Source: Candidatus Wolfebacteria bacterium
Lineage (GTDB): Bacteria; Patescibacteriota; Minisyncoccia; UBA6257; UBA9933
Reading direction: 5' to 3'
Length of the DNA: 64,000 nt
Assembly: GCA_024654025.1 (NCBI GenBank)
Contig: JANLIR010000002.1
Location: 168,959 to 232,958 of the forward strand
Under the pieces are notes generated by a model. The model ran no database searches. It was not told the origin of the DNA and saw nothing but the letters and a program-made list of their open reading frames with translations. Below are positions 4,364 through 24,196 of the stretch, in pieces. The position numbers and the translations under genes are program-made. Position 1 is the first letter of the stretch. Every line of letters begins with the position of its first letter.

Positions 4364-4702
4364 ATGAATATCGCATACGCTGCTCTAACTCCTTTAGTCC
4401 AATGCGGTCCCGGAACAGCCAAGCTCGAGTGCACTATTTGTGATCTATTTCAATTGGCTCAAAATATTTATAATTTTGTTATTGTTTTTGCGTTTGTTTT
4501 GGCTTTAGGAGCTTTGGTTTGGGCGGGGTTTAAAATAATGACTTCTGCCGGCGATCCGGGAAAATATAAAGACGCGGTTGGAAAAATCAGGACGATTTTA
4601 ATCGGCATAGCCATTCTGCTTTTAGCCGGGTTTGTGGTTGATTTAGTTTTGAAAGTCCTTGTCGGCGGCAGCTTGGGTCCGTGGAATAAATTGCCTTGCT
4701 AA
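4364..4702 (+). CDS. Type IV secretion pilin-like (TrbC/VirB2-like) small membrane protein, paralog 1
   Basis: 112 aa; two hydrophobic helices separated by a Gly/Asp/Lys-rich loop (…GFKIMTSAGDPGKYKDAVGKIRTILIGIAILLLAGF…), the pattern of CPR T4SS-pilin (PF18895-like) proteins. Confidence 0.4.
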   Translation: MNIAYAALTPLVQCGPGTAKLECTICDLFQLAQNIYNFVIVFAFVLALGALVWAGFKIMTSAGDPGKYKDAVGKIRTILIGIAILLLAGFVVDLVLKVLVGGSLGPWNKLPC

Positions 4703-4732
4703 AAAACCAAAAAAAATTTATTATAAATATTA

Positions 4733-5152
4733 ATGAAATCGCTTTTGTTTAAAATTTCTATAGTATCAGCGATAATTTTCGCGGTTTTTACCACGAGTAT
4801 TTTTGTAGAAAAAGTTTTGGCAGTGTCCGGTGGAGGGGTTAATACAGCGGCGCCGGGCGGCGGAGTTGATTCTGTTGGCGGCGGTAACGGACAGCTTTTT
4901 AATTATTTCGGATCCGGTTCGACTCTTGACAGTGTCCTTTCCAAAATAATCGATTATTTTATCGGTGTTTCGGTTTCAGTGGCTGTGATAATAGTTATCT
5001 ATGGAGCGTGGAAAATGATGACCGCGACAGGCGATCCTAAAAAATTCCAAGAAGGCCAAAAAACAGTTTTGTACGCCGCTATCGGGTTGTTGGTAATTTT
5101 ACTCGCAAGAGGGATTATCGGCGCGTTGTATGGGATAATACAAACGTTATAA
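4733..5152 (+). CDS. Type IV secretion pilin-like small membrane protein, paralog 2
   Basis: 139 aa; same architecture (…GAWKMMTATGDPKKFQEGQKTVLYAAIGLLVILLARG…) with a Gly-rich low-complexity insert (GGGVNTAAPGGGVDSVGGGNG). Confidence 0.4.
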   Translation: MKSLLFKISIVSAIIFAVFTTSIFVEKVLAVSGGGVNTAAPGGGVDSVGGGNGQLFNYFGSGSTLDSVLSKIIDYFIGVSVSVAVIIVIYGAWKMMTATGDPKKFQEGQKTVLYAAIGLLVILLARGIIGALYGIIQTL

Positions 5153-5192
5153 TAAATATAAAGAAAAAGGTCGAGAATGAGAAATCAAAAAA

Positions 5193-5558
5193 ATGAAAAA
5201 AGTTTTACAAAAAATTATTTATTCAGGAGCGATTTTATCGCTCGTATTGCCGGTATTTTCGTTTGCCGCGATATTTACTCCGCCAGGCCAGGGGCAACCT
5301 GGAAATATTCCTATAACCGGCCTCTCTAATGTGTATGACACGCTAGATACGGTAGCTAATTATTTGTTGGGATTATTAATTGCTTTGGCGGTTGTTTTCA
5401 TTGTTTGGGGAGCGTTTCAGTTTTTAACTTCCGGTGGAGATGAAGCAAAAACAAAAGCGGCAAGAAATCATATTCTCTGGGCTCTTGTAGCTGTCGCGGT
5501 TGGGTTACTTGCTAAAGGGCTAGTTGCCGCGATAAGAGGAATCGCCGGAAACTTATAA
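5193..5558 (+). CDS. Type IV secretion pilin-like small membrane protein, paralog 3
   Basis: 121 aa; signal peptide plus helix / loop (TSGGDEAKTKAARN) / helix. Followed by a hairpin terminator at 5582-5608. Confidence 0.4.
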   Translation: MKKVLQKIIYSGAILSLVLPVFSFAAIFTPPGQGQPGNIPITGLSNVYDTLDTVANYLLGLLIALAVVFIVWGAFQFLTSGGDEAKTKAARNHILWALVAVAVGLLAKGLVAAIRGIAGNL

Positions 5559-5581
5559 ATTTATTTTCAATGATTCAAAAA

Positions 5582-5608
5582 ATATCCCGAGTGTCGGGAT
5601 ATTTTTTT
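5582..5608 (+). terminator. Rho-independent terminator after the pilin-like triplet
   Basis: ATATCCCGA-GTG-TCGGGATAT hairpin followed by a T7 run. Confidence 0.6.
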
Positions 5609-5668
5609 ACTATTTTCATCCGTATTAATCCGTATGTATTTATAATTCGCACAAATCTGTTAGAAACA

Positions 5669-5716
5669 AAAAAATCCCCGCCTGCGGCCGAAGCCACAAG
5701 CGGGGTGTAAAAAACT
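5669..5716 (-). terminator. Rho-independent terminator (minus strand) after the GC-rich membrane-protein gene
   Basis: On the minus strand: CCCCGC…GCGGGG stem followed by ATTTTTTTG. Confidence 0.5.
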
Positions 5717-5728
5717 AGTTAGTTCACG

Positions 5729-6679
5729 TCAATAAATCTTCAGGAGACCCGGTTGTCCCATGGCCACTTTTATTGGGCCGAGCGGGTTTCCGTTAGTTTT
5801 CCATTTCCAAAAGCCAACCGGTCCCGCTTTCCGTGTTTCGCCGGAGCCCTCGCCAATTATGATCTGGTAAGAGTTTTGGGCGTCAATCGTTATGATTGTC
5901 CCAATGGGCGGGGTCCATGAAGTCACCGCAACGCTCCCGGCCGGAATAAAAACACCATTTCGTCCTTCTTCCGGCGTGACCACGATTTCTTTGAGAACCG
6001 GCGCACTGGGCGCAACCCCCGCTTCCGCGTTAGATGGTTTCATGGTGAGAGTCGTCACGATGCCATTGTCGATTCCCTTTGCTGAGTTCCTTGCGAGCTC
6101 GGCTGTGCGGGGAAGAAACAATGAAATGACGATTGTTATGAAAATCATCGATGCGACAAACGTTATTGCCCTTCCGTTGAAGATGGAAGTGCCTCCGAAA
6201 AGCCGAGTTCCGATAAAGATGATAAAGGCCAAGAGCAGCAGCAACGGGATCAGCTCGGGTCGTTTATCTATCGGAATGATGATAAGCATCAGGGCGAATG
6301 ATAACTCGGCGAATAATACGTGCAGCGTCAGTCGAACATACCGCTCTCCAAACCCCACTGCTGTTCTTCGCCAGATCGCGTCGATTATTAACGCAATCGG
6401 CGCGGCCAGTAAAGAAAGCAAGATCGTGAAGAACGCCCAAACAAGTCCCGCAACCGAAATCCACATCGAGAATCCGAAAATTCCCAGAAGCAGGATTGGT
6501 ATGGGCAGAAGCATCATTACGATTGCGAGCCGCGAAAGCCCGACCCGATATACTTCAAAATCGGTTCTGTTATCGCCCCCAACAAGGGCAATGACCTCGG
6601 CGGCGTCCGCCGCGCCGGTGATGATTGTGTCGAGAATGAGCCGCAGCGTTAAGAGTATTTCACGAAGTGTTTCACGCAT
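5729..6679 (-). CDS. Hypothetical multi-pass membrane protein with a C-terminal extracytoplasmic domain, in a GC-rich islet
   Basis: The tracked ORF is 5729..6784. The likely true start is the ATG at 6679 (MRETLREIL…), preceded by AAAGGAGG and overlapping the upstream stop (ATGCGTGA). About 5 TM helices, then a ~130-aa Gly/Pro/Thr-rich soluble tail. Local GC is roughly 55% against a ~38% background. Confidence 0.5.
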   Translation of the reverse strand: MRETLREILLTLRLILDTIITGAADAAEVIALVGGDNRTDFEVYRVGLSRLAIVMMLLPIPILLLGIFGFSMWISVAGLVWAFFTILLSLLAAPIALIIDAIWRRTAVGFGERYVRLTLHVLFAELSFALMLIIIPIDKRPELIPLLLLLAFIIFIGTRLFGGTSIFNGRAITFVASMIFITIVISLFLPRTAELARNSAKGIDNGIVTTLTMKPSNAEAGVAPSAPVLKEIVVTPEEGRNGVFIPAGSVAVTSWTPPIGTIITIDAQNSYQIIIGEGSGETRKAGPVGFWKWKTNGNPLGPIKVAMGQPGLLKIY

Positions 6680-7373
6680 GAGGAGCCTCCTTTCGATATT
6701 TGGCAGTCTTCCGGCCGCGTGCTGTGCGGCGGTTATTGAGCCATTCAGCCCAACGGTCGTTGAGGGGTTGAAGTTCTGAACCAATTACTCCAAATACTTC
6801 GTTGAGACGGATCCCAAACATTCTTAGCCACTGCATGACGATGTCGTGGTTGAGAAACTCGATTGCGCTGTCGAATTCTTGCGGAGGAAGTTCGCCGAGC
6901 CAGACGAAGAAGTTGATGGTATCTTCATCGGTCGTTTCCTTCCCTTCCTCGGATTCTTTAAGTATTAAAACCTTTCCGAGACAATCCACAAGAAGATTCT
7001 CTTCGCCAGGCCGGTAATTTCCTTCGTCAGAATAAAGCCGGGGCCGACAAAACTGCCGATCTTCCTGCCTCTTTCTGATGGTTTTTGCCGCGACTTTCTT
7101 CTTTTCATCTTCGGAAGATTCCATCTTCTGTAAAAAAACGAGAAGCTTGGCGCGGTAATGGTCACTCATCTTCGCCTGCACTTTTTTAGCCGTTTCTACG
7201 GCTGCCTTGCTCCCGACTTCGCGAATGACCTCGGCGGCAGCGGTTCTTGACCCCATCTTCATAAGCCCCCAGGCTTTTCTGAGGAGTTCAAAAACAGCAA
7301 TACCCCCTGCCGTTATCCCGAGTTCCTTTCCGACTTCGCCAGCGCTGAAATCAGCTTTCTTTTCCTCTGCCAT
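6672..7373 (-). CDS. Hypothetical protein (GC-rich islet), translationally coupled to the downstream membrane-protein gene
   Basis: 233 aa, Lys/Glu-rich, no recognisable motif. Shares the high GC of its neighbour. The antisense ORF 5892..6779 is a GC-driven shadow. Confidence 0.45.
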   Translation of the reverse strand: MAEEKKADFSAGEVGKELGITAGGIAVFELLRKAWGLMKMGSRTAAAEVIREVGSKAAVETAKKVQAKMSDHYRAKLLVFLQKMESSEDEKKKVAAKTIRKRQEDRQFCRPRLYSDEGNYRPGEENLLVDCLGKVLILKESEEGKETTDEDTINFFVWLGELPPQEFDSAIEFLNHDIVMQWLRMFGIRLNEVFGVIGSELQPLNDRWAEWLNNRRTARGRKTAKYRKEAPHA

Positions 7374-7564
7374 GGTCGGCGTCCTCCTTTCAGGATTTAG
7401 ATAGTTTCACTACGGGGTTGACGTAAACTATTTATAAGAGCAAATTTTGGAATAGTTGCCTACCCCAAAATACTTTGATATAATACAATAAAATTATTTA
7501 AAAGTCAACTAATGATTTTGTTAAAAAATAACAGCTAATAATGTATAATTTATTTGTTTAATAT

Positions 7565-7649
7565 GTCCTCGTGGCGGAAATGGAATACGCGCAGCGCTTA
7601 GGACGCTGTCCCGCAAGGGTTGTGGGTTCGACTCCCACCGAGGACACCA
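7565..7649 (+). tRNA. tRNA-Leu (anticodon TAG), class II with long variable arm; CCA encoded
   Basis: Acceptor GTCCTCG/CGAGGAC; anticodon arm CAGCG-CTTAGGA-CGCTG; variable stem CCC-GCAA-GGG; T-arm GTGGG-TTCGACT-CCCAC; ACCA at the 3' end. Preceded by a TATAAT -10 element at about 7543. Confidence 0.8.
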
Positions 7650-7650
7650 A

Positions 7651-7686
7651 ACTATAAATCCCTTCGAGACCGAAGGGATTTATAGT
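7651..7686 (+). terminator. Perfect 16-bp hairpin immediately 3' of tRNA-Leu
   Basis: ACTATAAATCCCTTCG-AGAC-CGAAGGGATTTATAGT. No clean U-tract, so it may be a processing or structure element. Confidence 0.45.
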
Positions 7687-7809
7687 TTATATATCACAAG
7701 GGAGGAGAAGGGTATTTAAAAAAGCAAACTGCTTTGCTTTTTTAAAACCCCGGCTCTGGAGGAGTAATTTTCCATGTTTATTTATGAACGAAAAATTACG
7801 GGGGAAGAG

Positions 7810-7827
7810 GACTCCCACCGAGGACAC
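7810..7827 (+). repeat. 18-bp direct repeat of the tRNA-Leu 3' end (candidate att-site remnant)
   Basis: GACTCCCACCGAGGACAC at 7810-7827 is identical to the last 18 nt of the tRNA body (7630-7647). It lies 4 bp from the stop of the tyrosine recombinase gene. Confidence 0.6.
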
Positions 7828-7831
7828 AAAA

Positions 7832-8827
7832 TTATCCCCTTCTTCTTCCGTGAAATGTTTTGTGTATTTCTTTGAGTTCTTTATTTGTTAAATGCGTGTA
7901 AATTTGGGTTGTGGAAATATTGCTATGGCCTAAAAGTTCTTGCACAGACCTTAAATCCGCTCCTCCGATTAATAAATCAGTGGCAAAGCTATGCCGGAGC
8001 AAATGCGGGTGGATTTTTTGCGGTATCCCCGCTTTTCGGCCGTAAAAATCTATCAAGCGCTGAATTGCGCGAGGAATAATTCTCCCGATAACTTTCGGAT
8101 TTGCTTGCCCTGAGCTCATCGAGTCTGAGACTCTCAGAGTCGAATGACTTGTCGAACGGGTTGCTTTAGTTAAGCTTACAAACAGCGCTTCTTCGGCATC
8201 GGTTCGTTTTCCTAAATAATTTTTTATAGCTTTCTTGGCGGATTCGGATAAAAACACCACTCTTATTTTCCCGCCCTTGCCCCGCACGGAAATTTCTCCC
8301 CTATTCAAATCAAAATACCGGCTCAAAGAACATAATTCTGAAACGCGAAGCCCGGTTGAAAACAAAACTTCCAAAATCGCTTTGTCGCGAAGTCCTTTTA
8401 AATCGTTTGTTTTGGGCGCTGCCATAAGCCGTTCCAAATCCGAGTATTCCATTATATTGATTTGCCGGTTTGGAATTCTAGGAAGCTCGATTTTTTCCGA
8501 AGCTAAAACCCTGTAGTCGTTTTTCGCCAAAAATTTCAAAAAGTTTCTAAGCGCTATTATGTAGTAGCTTTGGGTTGTGCGTTTAAAGTTTTCTCCATCT
8601 CTGGGATTATGAAGCCGCGCCAGATAGATCCGAAAATCTCTTACGTTGTCAGCGGTGATATCGCCCTCGGATTTTATTTTGGCGAAATCAAAAAACTTCG
8701 TTAAATAGTGCTCATAATTTTCCCGCGTGTCTTTAGTCCTGCCTTTTTCAATCTCAAGATAATCAAGATAGTTTTTGAGGAGTTTGTTTATGTCAGCCAT
8801 AGCTTCGCAACCTGTAACTTGTAACAA
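7832..8827 (-). CDS. Tyrosine site-specific recombinase (XerC/XerD / phage-integrase family)
   Basis: 331 aa. N-terminal SAM-like core-binding domain; catalytic motifs LFSTGLRVSEL, HPHLLRHSFATDLL, LGHSNISTTQIYTH (R…HxxR…Y). About 25-aa insertion relative to canonical XerD before the HxxR box. Confidence 0.85.
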   Translation of the reverse strand: MLQVTGCEAMADINKLLKNYLDYLEIEKGRTKDTRENYEHYLTKFFDFAKIKSEGDITADNVRDFRIYLARLHNPRDGENFKRTTQSYYIIALRNFLKFLAKNDYRVLASEKIELPRIPNRQINIMEYSDLERLMAAPKTNDLKGLRDKAILEVLFSTGLRVSELCSLSRYFDLNRGEISVRGKGGKIRVVFLSESAKKAIKNYLGKRTDAEEALFVSLTKATRSTSHSTLRVSDSMSSGQANPKVIGRIIPRAIQRLIDFYGRKAGIPQKIHPHLLRHSFATDLLIGGADLRSVQELLGHSNISTTQIYTHLTNKELKEIHKTFHGRRRG

Positions 8828-20366: not shown

Positions 20367-21965
20367 CTACCTTCCCAAATGCAAAACTTTTCTATGATGA
20401 GGATTTGATGTTTTTTGGGCTTGAACCGGAATTATCTTAAAATTATTTTTTGATTTTTTTATCACCGTCACCTTCCCGGAATTTGCGTCAACCTCAACCA
20501 GGTCGCCGTCTTTTAATGATTTTGTAGCTGTCTTTGCTCCGATAATGCATGGTGTTTTAAGTTCTCGAGCCACAATCGCCGCATGGCACAATAAACCTCC
20601 CTCATCGGTGACAACGGCGGAAGCTTTTTTTATTAAAGGCACAAAATCCGGCGTTGTCATAGAAGTAACTAAAACGTCTCCCTCTTCAAATTTTCCTTTT
20701 TCTGACCTTGGGTCAAAAATAATTTTAGCTTTTCCTTTGACCCTTCCTTTATATGCAGTAAACCCTTTTAGTATTTGATTTTTTGAGGTTTCTATCTTCT
20801 CGTGCCAGTCTTCTTTTTTGACGCCGGTCCATACTTTAATCGCGTTTCCGACTTGTTTTATGGTGGCTCCTTTTAATATTCTTTCTCTGACTATTTTTTT
20901 TGGATTATTTTTTCCCAAAAGACCCTCAATAATTTCTTTTTTGGAAAGAAGCCAAAAATCGTCCGCTTCTTCCAATTTCAATCTGTCTATAATTTCAAGG
21001 TAAAAATCCCAGCAGTGCACGAAGTAGTTATAATAATTTTCTTCATCGCAGTTGCGGTAGCCCATCATTTTTCTGAGCCAGAAAATATGTTTTGTTATTT
21101 TGGAATGTTTTTTTAGTTCGGATAAAATTTTCCCCACTATTTTTCGGCTCTTTTCTTCTTCATTATTTATTTTTCTTATTTCGGCTTCGGCATCGGTTTT
21201 TAAGTGTTTCAAAAACCGTTTGTCAATGTCCCCAAGCTTGTAATAATTGCCGTCGTGTTTAAAACTGCATCCGCCGAATTTATACCAATGGCCGAAAATA
21301 ATTTTTTTAATCTTTTTGTCCCGCCAGTTTTTTGAAGTCCTGTATATTTTTTGTATCTTAATTAATTTTTTCAAAAAATTCAGCCGCTCGGTCTTAACCA
21401 TTGAATTTATGCCCACAGATGAAAGAGTTTGCAGAATTTTTCCAACATCTTTTATTTTCAGCTCAGAAGAAAATTTGTCCAATTCTTTTTTGACTAGGCG
21501 GGGAAGAAGATTAACCAAGTCGTAGACGACGTAATAGCCGGCCAGCGCCCGGCGGTGATAATAACCGTGCTTTTCCAATATTTTTACCAGATCGCCGTTT
21601 GTCCTGCTTTTGTAAAAACCGGCACCTTTGGTAAATATTTGATCGGTTATTTTTTTAAAATCCGCGTAAGATTTGAAAAAATATTTTTCCAGCCTGCTGA
21701 AATAATTTTTATCTTTCAGTAAATCGCCGGCGACTCCTTCCAGAAATTCGTCTTCAATTTTACTGTCCCAATAAATAAAAAATTCCCTGGGATTGCCCGA
21801 TCTGGTAGAAACGTATTTAACCCAATTGCCGTAATTTCTTTTATAAGGATCTCCTTTCCAATTTAAAATAGTTACTTTTAAAGTTTCTTCTTCAGAAAGA
21901 ATATCCAGTACTCTGACCATTTTTTCAATGTTATCCGGATTGGAAAAGGGTTTATACCTGCTCAT
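20367..21965 (-). CDS. Uncharacterised ~420-aa domain fused to a C-terminal PEP-utilising-enzyme mobile (phospho-histidine swivel) domain
   Basis: 532 aa. The C-terminal ~100 aa (…VTDEGGLLCHAAIVARELKTPCIIGAKTATKSLKDGDLVEVDANSGKV) is a canonical PEP-utilisers swivel domain with the catalytic His. The N-terminal part is Lys/Tyr-rich with no recognisable motif. Start overlaps the upstream gene by 4 nt. Confidence 0.7.
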   Translation of the reverse strand: MSRYKPFSNPDNIEKMVRVLDILSEEETLKVTILNWKGDPYKRNYGNWVKYVSTRSGNPREFFIYWDSKIEDEFLEGVAGDLLKDKNYFSRLEKYFFKSYADFKKITDQIFTKGAGFYKSRTNGDLVKILEKHGYYHRRALAGYYVVYDLVNLLPRLVKKELDKFSSELKIKDVGKILQTLSSVGINSMVKTERLNFLKKLIKIQKIYRTSKNWRDKKIKKIIFGHWYKFGGCSFKHDGNYYKLGDIDKRFLKHLKTDAEAEIRKINNEEEKSRKIVGKILSELKKHSKITKHIFWLRKMMGYRNCDEENYYNYFVHCWDFYLEIIDRLKLEEADDFWLLSKKEIIEGLLGKNNPKKIVRERILKGATIKQVGNAIKVWTGVKKEDWHEKIETSKNQILKGFTAYKGRVKGKAKIIFDPRSEKGKFEEGDVLVTSMTTPDFVPLIKKASAVVTDEGGLLCHAAIVARELKTPCIIGAKTATKSLKDGDLVEVDANSGKVTVIKKSKNNFKIIPVQAQKTSNPHHRKVLHLGR

Positions 21966-22285
21966 TTCAAAATTTTTACGATTCCTTTGTTTAAGTCCAT
22001 TTCAACCCTGTCGCCGTCTTTTAAAATTTTCGTGGCGTTTTTCGTACCCACAATACAAGGAATGCCGAATTCCCGAGCTATAATTGCAGGATGAGAGGTG
22101 ATTCCTCCTCTATCTGTGATTATGGCAGCCGCTTTTATGATAATTGCCGCGAAAGAAGGATTGGTTAATTCCGCAACTAAAATTTCCCCTTCTTTAAAAT
22201 TTTTAAAATCCTTGGGATTTTTAATGATTTTTACTCTGCCCTTGGCTTTCCCTTTGTTTGCAACGATCCCTTTTATTTCTTTCAT
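21962..22285 (-). CDS. Stand-alone PEP-utilising-enzyme mobile (phospho-histidine swivel) domain protein
   Basis: 107 aa; …ITDRGGITSHPAIIAREFGIPCIVGTKNATKILKDGDRVEMDLNKGIV. Overlaps both neighbours by 4 nt (translational coupling). Confidence 0.75.
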   Translation of the reverse strand: MKEIKGIVANKGKAKGRVKIIKNPKDFKNFKEGEILVAELTNPSFAAIIIKAAAIITDRGGITSHPAIIAREFGIPCIVGTKNATKILKDGDRVEMDLNKGIVKILK

Positions 22286-23346
22286 AAATTGTAAATTTTT
22301 TTCAAGTATGCCACCCCTACGTATTTCTCATACTCCTTTTTATTTTTCGGATAGGACATTTTTATAAAACCTGTTTTTAAGCGCTTATCTTTTATTTTTT
22401 TAACCATTTCTTTATCCGGACGCCAATTTAAGCCAGCCAAATTAAATAATCCCCTTAATTCATAAGCTTGCTGTTCTAAAAATTTCAATTTTGTTTTTTC
22501 AAAATTATATCCCTTTGCCTCAAGATAAATTTCTCCGGTTTTCTCCGCTATTTGCCGGATTAATTTTTCAATTTTAAGGCCAGTCGCTGGTTTTCCGTTC
22601 AACAAAACCAAATATTTAAACAATTTTTTGGCATAGTCCTTATCCGCTAAAATATGAGTAGTTACAAAACGCATTTTGAGTCTTGTGTCTTTGTATAAAA
22701 CCAAAATCATTATTTTTTTAAATTTAAAATTTTTTAATTTAGGCCACAGCTCTTTAGGAAACAAATCAAGGTAATTCTTTATAAGCAGAGAATGATTTTT
22801 ATATTTGTAAGGACCTTCGTTAAAATAACCATATTCGGTTGAATAATCGTTGTAAAGCGCGTGGTTATACATCGCTAAAATACCGCTTAATTTAGATATA
22901 TTTGCCTTTTCTTTTTCGCCGGCAACTTTCAATTTTAGGATAATTCTGCTGATTTCTTCTTTTGTTCTTAAAACACAACTTTTTTCATTAAATAGATTTT
23001 TATCTTTGCTTATCCAAAGCATGTACTTTATGAAAAAGTCAAAAATAGTTTTTGCTTTTTCTTTGTCATAATTAAAATAAGCGCCCATATTCACAAGCGT
23101 ATAAAATATATATTTTATGGAGCCATAATTAGAAAGGTTCGCTAAAATTTTCTTTTGGGATATTTTTTTGCTTTCAATTATCTTAATGGCGGAATAAATT
23201 TTATCCATCCAAAGTTTGAAATATAAAGGATAAAATTTAAAGGCATTGAATGGCAGATGAGATGCCGGGTCGTGATCGCCGAAAGTAAAATCCTTTACGG
23301 CATCAGAATAATCCCGTATCCATTTATTTGGATTCCAATTATTCAT
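22282..23346 (-). CDS. Uncharacterised protein (possible substrate-binding partner of the adjacent swivel domain)
   Basis: 354 aa, Lys/Tyr/Asn-rich, no recognisable motif. Same operon position relative to a swivel domain as the N-terminal part of the 532-aa protein. Confidence 0.45.
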   Translation of the reverse strand: MNNWNPNKWIRDYSDAVKDFTFGDHDPASHLPFNAFKFYPLYFKLWMDKIYSAIKIIESKKISQKKILANLSNYGSIKYIFYTLVNMGAYFNYDKEKAKTIFDFFIKYMLWISKDKNLFNEKSCVLRTKEEISRIILKLKVAGEKEKANISKLSGILAMYNHALYNDYSTEYGYFNEGPYKYKNHSLLIKNYLDLFPKELWPKLKNFKFKKIMILVLYKDTRLKMRFVTTHILADKDYAKKLFKYLVLLNGKPATGLKIEKLIRQIAEKTGEIYLEAKGYNFEKTKLKFLEQQAYELRGLFNLAGLNWRPDKEMVKKIKDKRLKTGFIKMSYPKNKKEYEKYVGVAYLKKIYNL

Positions 23347-24196
23347 TTTGTTCTTCTATTTTTACCTCAAATTCTTTTCCGCGCCATACAATTTTTATTT
23401 GATCTCCGCCGATTGTTATGGTCGCGCCTTCCGTGGTGTCTGTAAGCTTTTCATCAGAAATTTCCTTAAAACTTTTAGGAGAAACTTCTCCCGTGATCAG
23501 TTTCAAAATAGCCGCGTCTAAATCCCAGCGGTGGGAAACAGCGCCAATGACCACAGGCCTTTCAGGGAAATATTTTTTTGCAAATTCATGAAGCCTGTCT
23601 AATCCAAATAAGTACTCTTCCGCTACGGTTTCCGGATTTGGACCCTCTGATCCTTCTATGTTTTCTCCTTTGGTATGAGACCATTCTTCAAAAGCTCCTT
23701 CTTCGTTATCGCCATATTTTTTGTCCAAATAATCGTAATATTCAAAATTGTCTTTTTTAGCGTCCCAACGGCGGTCAAATGAAAGTTCTTTAACAAAAAG
23801 AGGAAAATCAACCACTATTTTTTTGTTTTTATTTTCGTCGCTCTCAACTATTTCAATGATTTTTTTAATTGCGGATGAAATTGATCCGGTTTTTCCTGCT
23901 TGGTTTAAAATTTCCTCTTTGATTAAAACCAACACGGTTTCATCGTTTTCATACAACGTTTTCAATCCTTCGCCTGCCGCAATGGCCGTTGATTTGGTTC
24001 TTGCGAGCTCTGTGGCCCCTCCAATATAAATTAAAGCTCTATCAGGAGCGTTATCTATAATTTCTTTTATTTCCCTAGCTTTTTGTTCCTTGGCTTTTTC
24101 AACGCCTTTTTCGCTAAGCCCGGGATGAGTTTGCGATTCCGGGTTTTTCTCATCCGGCTTATCCGAATGTCTTAAAATAAAAAACTTCTTTTCCAT
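23339..24196 (-). CDS. Histidine-phosphatase-superfamily (PGAM/SixA-like) protein, tentative
   Basis: 285 aa. N-terminal FILRHSDKPDE… (RH[G/S] motif) and a later GAVSHRWDLDAAI (second catalytic His). Acidic inserts. 8-nt overlap with the downstream gene. Confidence 0.45.
   Translation of the reverse strand: MEKKFFILRHSDKPDEKNPESQTHPGLSEKGVEKAKEQKAREIKEIIDNAPDRALIYIGGATELARTKSTAIAAGEGLKTLYENDETVLVLIKEEILNQAGKTGSISSAIKKIIEIVESDENKNKKIVVDFPLFVKELSFDRRWDAKKDNFEYYDYLDKKYGDNEEGAFEEWSHTKGENIEGSEGPNPETVAEEYLFGLDRLHEFAKKYFPERPVVIGAVSHRWDLDAAILKLITGEVSPKSFKEISDEKLTDTTEGATITIGGDQIKIVWRGKEFEVKIEEQNE

Follow-up and report, generated by a model that had tools for sequence, protein, structure and literature searches.

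Genes and signals between the pilin array and tRNA-Leu

A GC-rich segment stands out in a 64-kb stretch of a Candidatus Wolfebacteria contig (JANLIR010000002.1), here called the window and always meant at its full length, where it lies between an array of type IV secretion system (T4SS) pilin genes and a tRNA-Leu gene. It carries two minus-strand genes, which we call A and B and, together, the module. An initial annotation of the letters alone had described the segment as an islet inserted by recent horizontal transfer, with unrecognisable products. Comparison with relatives indicates instead that the module sits in a conserved slot, where it is probably the local allele of a fast-evolving, exchangeable specificity module associated with the T4SS or its pilus, homologously replaced from relatives of higher GC content. 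The features of the locus, by position in the window, are as follows.

4364..5558, plus strand: VirB2-like pilin array of three genes matching PF18895 T4SS_pilin (E 1e-9 to 4e-11), tail-to-tail with the module
4364-4702, plus strand: pil1, PF18895 member of the array
4733-5152, plus strand: pil2, with a variable mature N-terminal tail (~4820-4900)
5193-5558, plus strand: pil3, PF18895 member of the array, between pil2 and B
5577..5607, plus strand: terminator of the pilin array, kept in relatives; left edge of the exchangeable segment
5608..7356, minus strand: exchangeable segment of high GC (0.504); here the window and clade member L096 cease to be similar in DNA
5676..5705, minus strand: intrinsic terminator of the A-B operon, a 13-pair stem (10 of the pairs GC) with a T-run behind it
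5729..6679, minus strand: gene B, 316 amino acids counted from ATG
5729..6061, minus strand: C-terminal extracytoplasmic cassette of gene B (predicted), residues ~206-316, hypervariable and replaced as a unit between lineages
6062..6679, minus strand: N-terminal amphipathic helix and five-transmembrane domain of gene B, residues 1-205, the conserved core of the family
6672..7373, minus strand: gene A, 233 amino acids, predicted all-helical and cytoplasmic; overlaps B and is fused to B in some relatives
7374..7564, no strand assigned: AT-rich divergent control region, conserved in the clade
7471-7444, minus strand: 12-pair hairpin in the leader of gene A, trailed by T-rich sequence; lies downstream of the promoter-like site and ahead of the A start codon
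7508-7480, minus strand: promoter-like site for A-B, within the control region
7521-7549, plus strand: promoter-like site for tRNA-Leu, within the control region
7565..7649, plus strand: tRNA-Leu(TAG), conserved right-hand anchor of the slot
7832..8800, minus strand: Xer-type tyrosine recombinase (XerC/XerD/XerA models, E 1e-66 to 1e-69)

The GC content is 51.0% over positions 5690-7400 (51.1% over 5729-7373) compared with 39.8% across the whole window, and the flanks on either side have values of 0.402 and 0.404. In 1.7-kb sliding windows (mean 0.397, standard deviation 0.027) the maximum falls at position 5701, about 4.2 standard deviations over the mean. The anomaly seen in the initial annotation is thus real, but its estimate of ~55% GC was too high, as the richest 400-nt windows inside the segment reach 52.7%. 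GC at third codon positions (GC3) is 0.526 in gene A (z 3.5) and 0.585 in gene B (z 5.0), relative to a background of 0.388 ± 0.040 in 44 other open reading frames (ORFs) of the window, and the shift is not confined to GC3, since first and second positions (GC1 and GC2) are likewise above background. The lowest-GC part of the window is 21000-24000 (0.32-0.36), where there is an unannotated 354-amino-acid ORF (22282-23346, minus strand).

The reading frames of A and B share 8 nt (ATGCGTGA). A strong AGGAGG ribosome-binding site stands ahead of each gene, and the two are translationally coupled in one operon. Protein A is rich in Glu (11.6%) and Lys (9.4%) and has no hydrophobic segment. Protein B has five hydrophobic segments and a positively charged cytoplasmic loop, which gives it the multiple transmembrane (TM) segments, at least five, of VirB6/TrbL proteins, and its last 111 residues are rich in Gly (13.5%), Pro (9.9%) and Thr (9.0%). 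Hydropathy, loop charge and natural fusions predict that this C-terminal domain of ~110 residues faces outwards. In AlphaFold2 (AF2) models, B had an overall predicted local distance difference test score (pLDDT) of 79.6, with values of ~90 in the TM part, while the all-helical model of A was poor (pLDDT 61.7). The description of the locus in the initial annotation, as a coupled pair encoding a five-TM protein with a Gly/Pro/Thr-rich tail and a 233-residue Lys/Glu-rich protein, with its own terminator (here placed at 5705-5676, minus strand), a tRNA-Leu promoter (here a promoter-like site) at its other end and a pilin-like triplet alongside, was borne out in each of these points. The hairpin upstream of A may act as a regulatory leader; relatives hold an additional palindromic insert at its position. 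An Rfam scan matched only the tRNA. A 295-amino-acid antisense ORF inside gene B (5892-6779, plus strand) was rejected as a gene: substitutions track the minus-strand frames (omega 0.1-0.2), so that high GC most likely accounts for its presence.

Conservation and exchange of the module within the clade

A word-indexed search of 5.8 billion proteins returned just five to six relatives each for A and B. The window comes from a Candidatus Wolfebacteria metagenome-assembled genome (MAG), and B is 100% identical to a hypothetical protein from a MAG of that name. Five lineages were sampled, namely the window, L001, L002, L008 and L096, of which the first four are referred to as window-type. The gene order is the same in all of these relatives: gyrA, a solute-binding protein gene (SBP), three T4SS_pilin genes, the B-A module, tRNA-Leu, Xer, S15, NYN and PNPase. 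The module occupies this slot in five of the five lineages. Among the window-type lineages gyrA is 91-96% and NYN 99% identical, compared with just 60-85% for A and 64-76% for B; in L096, where synteny is unchanged, the corresponding values are 88-91% for gyrA and 99-100% for NYN. The TM domain of B (residues 1-205) is 82-88% identical among the four window-type lineages. Purifying selection acts on both genes: the ratio of nonsynonymous to synonymous divergence (omega, dN/dS) is 0.12-0.17 in A and, in the TM domain of B, 0.11-0.19. Synonymous divergence (dS) of the B TM domain, 0.42-0.74, is comparable to that of core genes (0.3-1.0), and GC3 of the module is raised in every lineage examined. 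Its presence in the same slot in all lineages, core-like dS and uniformly high GC3 indicate that the module predates the split of these lineages.

These results do not fit a recent arrival, and conservation in related genomes, which the initial annotation itself had set against its claim, is what was found. The picture of an inserted islet fares no better. No sampled clade relative has an empty site; all carry the module, as alternative alleles between conserved flanks. Searches for repeats, direct or inverted, that bracket 5600-7400 gave none, and no integrase or other mobility gene belonging to the segment was found. The neighbouring recombinase was considered as an island integrase and rejected: it is an Xer-type housekeeping enzyme on the far side of the tRNA gene, with 83-94% identity and unchanged synteny in all relatives and a position that is kept across the Paceibacteria.

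DNA comparisons show how the alleles differ. The last ~110 residues of B occur in at least four cassette types in the clade, which are barely alignable and saturated in dS; the fourth type is that of P0009, a protein encoded on a 6.9-kb NCBI contig. In L096 the slot holds a fused A-B protein (P0052) that is also GC-rich (0.517; GC3 0.596) and whose B TM domain is just 26-32% identical in protein to those of the other clade lineages. Between the window and L096, DNA similarity is lost exactly over 5608-7356 and resumes within the first codons of A, where both proteins begin MAEEKK; between the window and L001 it is lost over 5608-5997 only, which covers the terminator and the C-terminal cassette. 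L001 and L096 share a block of 76-78% DNA identity that extends from pil3 across the spacer and on into the C-terminal cassette, breaking at the TM boundary. Their cassettes have 78% DNA identity, even though the TM domains show no relation at the DNA level. Relatives keep the control region upstream of A as well as both terminators. There are thus two nested exchangeable units, the whole module or the C-terminal cassette alone, and the locus is polymorphic, being replaced through homologous recombination in conserved flanks (the pilin terminator on one side; the A start codon, promoter and tRNA-Leu on the other).

The locus has alleles that cannot be aligned in DNA, conserved flanks and mosaic breakpoints, which are the marks of a replaceable polymorphic surface locus. 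The arrangement resembles O-antigen and capsule loci and pilin antigenic variation in having divergent alleles between conserved flanks, atypical GC, breakpoints at the edges and a surface-exposed product (here a predicted one). It differs from them in that the module has two genes only, its alleles are homologous at the level of the protein family, and no silent copy of the segment or of any cassette type was found in the 64-kb window.

The cassette of B appears to co-vary with the second pilin of the array. In pil2 the 80 C-terminal residues are the same in every lineage, and variation is found in the mature N-terminal tail, where a motif of 7-9 amino acids is repeated in tandem: GGGV(N/D)(T/S)AAPGGGVDS in the window and L008, APGTYNSAPGTYNS in L001 and L096, and SGGQPTTSGGQPTG in L002. 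Cassette identity in B is 67% between the window and L008 and 79% between L001 and L096, with L002 standing alone at 20-28%, and so the pil2-tail groups {window, L008}, {L001, L096} and {L002} are also the cassette groups. This shared grouping conflicts with the core tree, with the B TM domain and with pil3, which is 97-99% identical among the window, L001 and L002. The match suggests that the predicted outward domain of B and the pil2 tail interact, or that both face one external partner. The motif, short and rich in Gly, Ser, Thr and Pro, is duplicated in tandem in the variable tail and is not the same from lineage to lineage. The pilin array of L095 is followed by two genes for PMT-type O-mannosyltransferases, which raises the possibility that the pilin tails are glycosylated.

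The 3' flank of tRNA-Leu has a separate history. The last 18 nt of the gene (7630-7647) are repeated exactly 180 bp downstream (7810-7827), with 0 such repeats expected by chance. The DNA in between (7648-7809) is present in L002, and L001 has an empty site; it holds two perfect or near-perfect palindromes (7649-7688 and 7705-7756) and looks like a remnant or miniature tRNA-targeting integrative element, unrelated to the GC-rich module. In L008 (1528-1923) and L096 (6149-6541) this hot spot holds, in place of the 180-bp insert, a homologous ORF of 130/131 amino acids with CxxC...CxxC motifs and no Pfam match on record.

The A-B family and its link to type IV secretion

The products of the module had been called unrecognisable, and library searches agree as far as named families go. 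Neither A nor B matched Pfam or NCBIfam; against PHROGs nothing was better than E 0.05, against PADLOC there were 0 matches at E<=1, neither gene was found on IMG/VR viral contigs, their profiles found no sequence relative in the PDB, and the model of A had no fold match. Exhaustive HMMER searches with a B profile nevertheless recovered 129 cluster representatives when the cutoff was E<=1e-3 and 72 when it was E<=1e-10. In each of them similarity is confined to the TM domain (profile positions ~5-220), and they range in length from 130 to 649 amino acids, most being ~300-650, which points to a conserved membrane core with diverse C-termini. B is thus part of a family of 129 or more clusters that lacks annotation; relatives of A always occur paired with B or fused to it, and the A-B family is a new one linked to patescibacterial T4SS pilin arrays.

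To place the family in its genomic context, 80 species-level loci (~5,500 ORFs) were gathered with the neighbouring NYN gene as anchor. The order gyrA-SBP-pilins-[~3 kb slot]-tRNA-Leu-Xer-S15-NYN-PNPase is widespread in the Paceibacteria, and an iterated B-family hidden Markov model (HMM) matched minus-strand ORFs in the slot of L027, L044, L048, L049, L061, L073, L074, L083, L084, L087 and L088; its sole match outside the slot was an ORF of L028 that lies 2.9 kb from the pilin array of that locus. An A-family HMM matched genes directly upstream of B in L092, L055, L084, L049, L088, L087 and L073, and its other matches were the N-termini of the natural A-B fusions P0052 (514 amino acids, 55-56 bits) and P0045 (501 amino acids, 46.7 bits). 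Since A-like genes lie just upstream of B or are fused to it, A and B are an old functional pair. A profile search for further A relatives yielded only three more proteins, and a metagenome scan gave no loci beyond those already found. A conserved protein of ~80 amino acids (ending ...DNSLRNLxDxYQRKEGFR), not a full-length A, precedes B in L094 (6762-7004) and L099 (795-1043); it occurs where B homologues adjoin VirD4-like ATPases. In L025 (5443-7355), L041 (6199-7782) and L095 (4582-6251) the slot is occupied, wholly or in part, by genes for a Band_7/SPFH-like protein and its small membrane partner.

Distant B homologues are convergent on T4SS_pilin arrays in L091, L093 and L096, and also in L092, where the other flank differs; in L095 the pilins are 5.5 kb from the B homologue. 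The distance from the end of B to the last pilin gene is 50-430 bp in most loci, L091 and L092 among them. Among the NYN-anchored loci, B was found in 13 of the 30 with pilins and in 0 of the 50 without (Fisher p=4e-7), a comparison confounded by shared synteny and by contig ends. Association with secretion genes extends beyond pilins: in L094, L097 and L099 a B homologue lies directly beside a same-strand ATPase of 845-1022 amino acids that matches TrwB_AAD_bind, T4SS-DNA_transf, TraG-D_C and DUF87, and is thus like VirD4, the coupling protein. Small ORFs adjoining the B gene of L097 were considered as pilins and rejected.

VirB6 was considered as an identity for B. VirB6 is required for incorporation of VirB2 into pili (PMC6120205), and an "extended VirB6" with at least five TM helices and a C-proximal hydrophilic domain has been described (PMC12857230). 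According to the survey of Quinonero-Coronel et al. (PMC12102498), the T4SS of Patescibacteria is a distinct one, its VirB2-like pilin arrays are variable and comprise 2-11 genes, VirB6 is scarce or highly divergent in some of their classes, and homologues of the type IV coupling protein (T4CP) are mostly apart from virB4. Published surveys deal with the pilins and with canonical parts of the T4SS, and the sections on T4SS gene repertoire and chromosomal context do not mention the A-B module. Both the T4SS and its VirB2-like pilin array are essential in a Saccharibacterium, the only member that is genetically tractable (PMC10633639, PMC12857230).

The proposal that B is VirB6/TrbL (PF04610) or a PrgH-type VirB6-like protein was not accepted, as it failed both profile and fold tests. 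In Pfam and NCBIfam, 0 of 104 B-family members matched TrbL/VirB6 at E<=0.01, and these members matched no convincing T4SS family there, giving only scattered weak matches such as a single pLS20_p028 (7e-4) and a single IcmT/TraK (7e-3). The AF2 model of B had no Foldseek match better than E 0.47 and no convincing fold similarity to the solved VirB6 (TrwI, 7O3V). By analogy, B may still work like a VirB6-type platform. It resembles VirB6/TrbL proteins, including the extended form and the N-domain of F and SXT TraG, in being polytopic with a C-proximal hydrophilic domain, and it shares with VirB6 the linkage to VirB2-like pilins and T4CP-like ATPases; the role of VirB6 in bringing VirB2 into pili is similar to the one proposed below for B. 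B differs in having no profile match or convincing fold match, in having no virB4 neighbour among the window ORFs scanned, and in possessing a dedicated cytoplasmic partner or fusion domain (A) and a C-terminal domain exchanged as a cassette. VirB2-like pilin arrays, known from Patescibacteria, Bartonella and Anaplasma, offer another parallel, as they too have a hypervariable exposed segment and an array of this kind adjoins the module, but A and B are not pilins.

Origin of the composition and role of the module

The GC shift extends to all three codon positions, as would be the case for genes that evolved in a genome of ~50-55% GC. When synonymous singletons were polarised by parsimony, in a small sample, core genes had 205 GC->AT and 222 AT->GC changes, while the module had 50 GC->AT and 32 AT->GC (p=0.06; Fisher test relative to core genes 0.04), with an excess of GC->AT in the B TM domain (28 vs 12). 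A foreign origin is plausible because all codon positions are shifted and the changes lean from GC to AT, and in this respect the horizontal acquisition proposed in the initial annotation finds partial support, though not as a recent event. A simple two-state back-extrapolation would place the ancestral GC3 of the module near 0.65, which is the background GC3 of the family-carrying Paceibacteria L092, L049, L084, L044 and L048. Most simply, 51% GC in a 40% genome would represent an incompletely ameliorated import from relatives of ~55% GC, made before the four window-type lineages split.

Alternatively, a local process might have raised the GC, either selection or GC-biased gene conversion at a recombination hot spot; we regard this as a doubtful but real contender. 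Recombination at the locus is plain to see, GC is high in both unrelated allele classes and in every cassette type of the clade, and slot genes also exceed their hosts in GC in L089, L061, L074, L044 and L048 (those of L089, 6231-7615, and L061, 6043-8300, have 61-63% GC in genomes of 45-50%). The AT->GC rate per AT site is 0.41 in the module and 0.30 in core genes, implying an equilibrium GC3 of ~0.50, although these estimates come from the same small, parsimony-polarised sample. A process acting at the locus does not readily explain why GC1 and GC2 are raised as well, why the B TM domain has a net GC->AT excess, or why the GC of the module falls short of the host value in L092, L084 and L094 and equals it in L091, L093, L095 and L049.

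Several of the same data, and others, weigh against replacement from higher-GC relatives at a secretion-linked locus. The amelioration signal is weak, and gene A alone (22 vs 20) has none. The low-GC relatives L091, L093 and L095 have no GC elevation, and import alone fails to predict that both deeply divergent allele classes should be GC-rich. The outward orientation of the B C-terminus is a prediction from hydropathy, loop charge and fusions. The co-variation with pil2 comes from five lineages and three types, for which the probability of chance coincidence is ~1/15. Neither VirB4 nor a T4CP was detected among the ten window ORFs (all of at least 453 amino acids) scanned against Pfam, and adjacency to pilins could be a product of inherited synteny with no functional link.

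Other explanations of the segment as a whole seem less likely. The idea of a recent, foreign, tRNA-associated islet of two orphan genes unrelated to their neighbours draws on the GC of 51% against 40%, the maximum of the window, on the proximity of a tRNA gene and a tyrosine recombinase, a setting shared with tRNA-associated integrative islands, and on the absence of matches in Pfam, PHROG, NCBIfam or PADLOC. We give it very little credence, as the module is in every sampled clade member, free of presence/absence polymorphism, with core-like dS; the slot holds homologous A-B modules across the Paceibacteria; the segment is on the 5' side of the tRNA gene with no flanking direct or inverted repeats; and the recombinase is the conserved Xer on the far side, while the only att-like duplication is 3' of the tRNA, where it bounds the separate 180-bp insert. 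A two-gene system for phage defence, abortive infection or receptor masking, placed in a variable hot spot near the tRNA, seems improbable to us. A fast-evolving, coupled pair of membrane and cytoplasmic proteins with atypical GC could be such a system, integration hot-spot behaviour is demonstrable for the 3' flank of tRNA-Leu, and L097 is near CRISPR adaptation genes. Yet neither gene has a PADLOC or PHROG match or was found on IMG/VR contigs, the position is fixed and syntenic at order-level distance rather than patchy or mobile, and natural A-B fusions together with adjacency to pilins and T4CP-like ATPases point to part of a machine.

The main functional rival, compatible with the data but in our judgment unlikely, is that the module is a determinant of self/non-self recognition or exclusion and not an assembly component, such that the polymorphic outward domain of B and the matched pilin tail would define types whose diversity is kept by frequency-dependent selection, much as in the entry or surface exclusion of conjugative systems or in kin recognition. 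TraG of F and SXT combines a polytopic VirB6-like domain with a specificity-determining region. The deeply divergent allele classes, the four or more cassette types within one clade, the reshuffling of cassettes between unrelated TM backbones and the co-variation of cassette types with the pilin tail would all be expected of such a determinant. However, no partner exclusion gene was identified, nothing shows discrimination between cells in these organisms, and the strong conservation of A and the B TM domain is that of a machine part. The data fail to separate this reading from recognition of a host surface.

Replacement of alleles of a T4SS- or pilus-associated specificity module thus remains the reading that we think probable. 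Judging from its context, A-B would be accessory to the T4SS/pilus apparatus of Patescibacteria, as a membrane component in which the extracellular domain of B would act together with the exposed N-terminal tail of pilin 2, either docking or presenting this pilin or touching the same outside partner, and A would link the TM domain of B to cytoplasmic machinery. Variable pilins have been proposed to serve adaptation to host strains (Quinonero-Coronel et al., PMC12102498). We suggest, tentatively and as a step that may well prove wrong, that the B outward domain and the pil2 tail form a matched pair setting T4SS-pilus "specificity types", which might govern the host range or the partner and self recognition of these episymbionts and be reassorted by cassette recombination at a fixed slot, with A tying the module to the VirD4-like ATPase.

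As this case illustrates, a strong GC anomaly can mark the replacement of an allele at a conserved locus and not a newly inserted island. The ultra-small Patescibacteria need host cells to live, and this locus offers a candidate for the source of specificity in their T4SS apparatus. If the proposed pairing is true, host or partner specificity in bacteria of the candidate phyla radiation (CPR) would be testable from sequence, by typing pilin tails against B cassettes.

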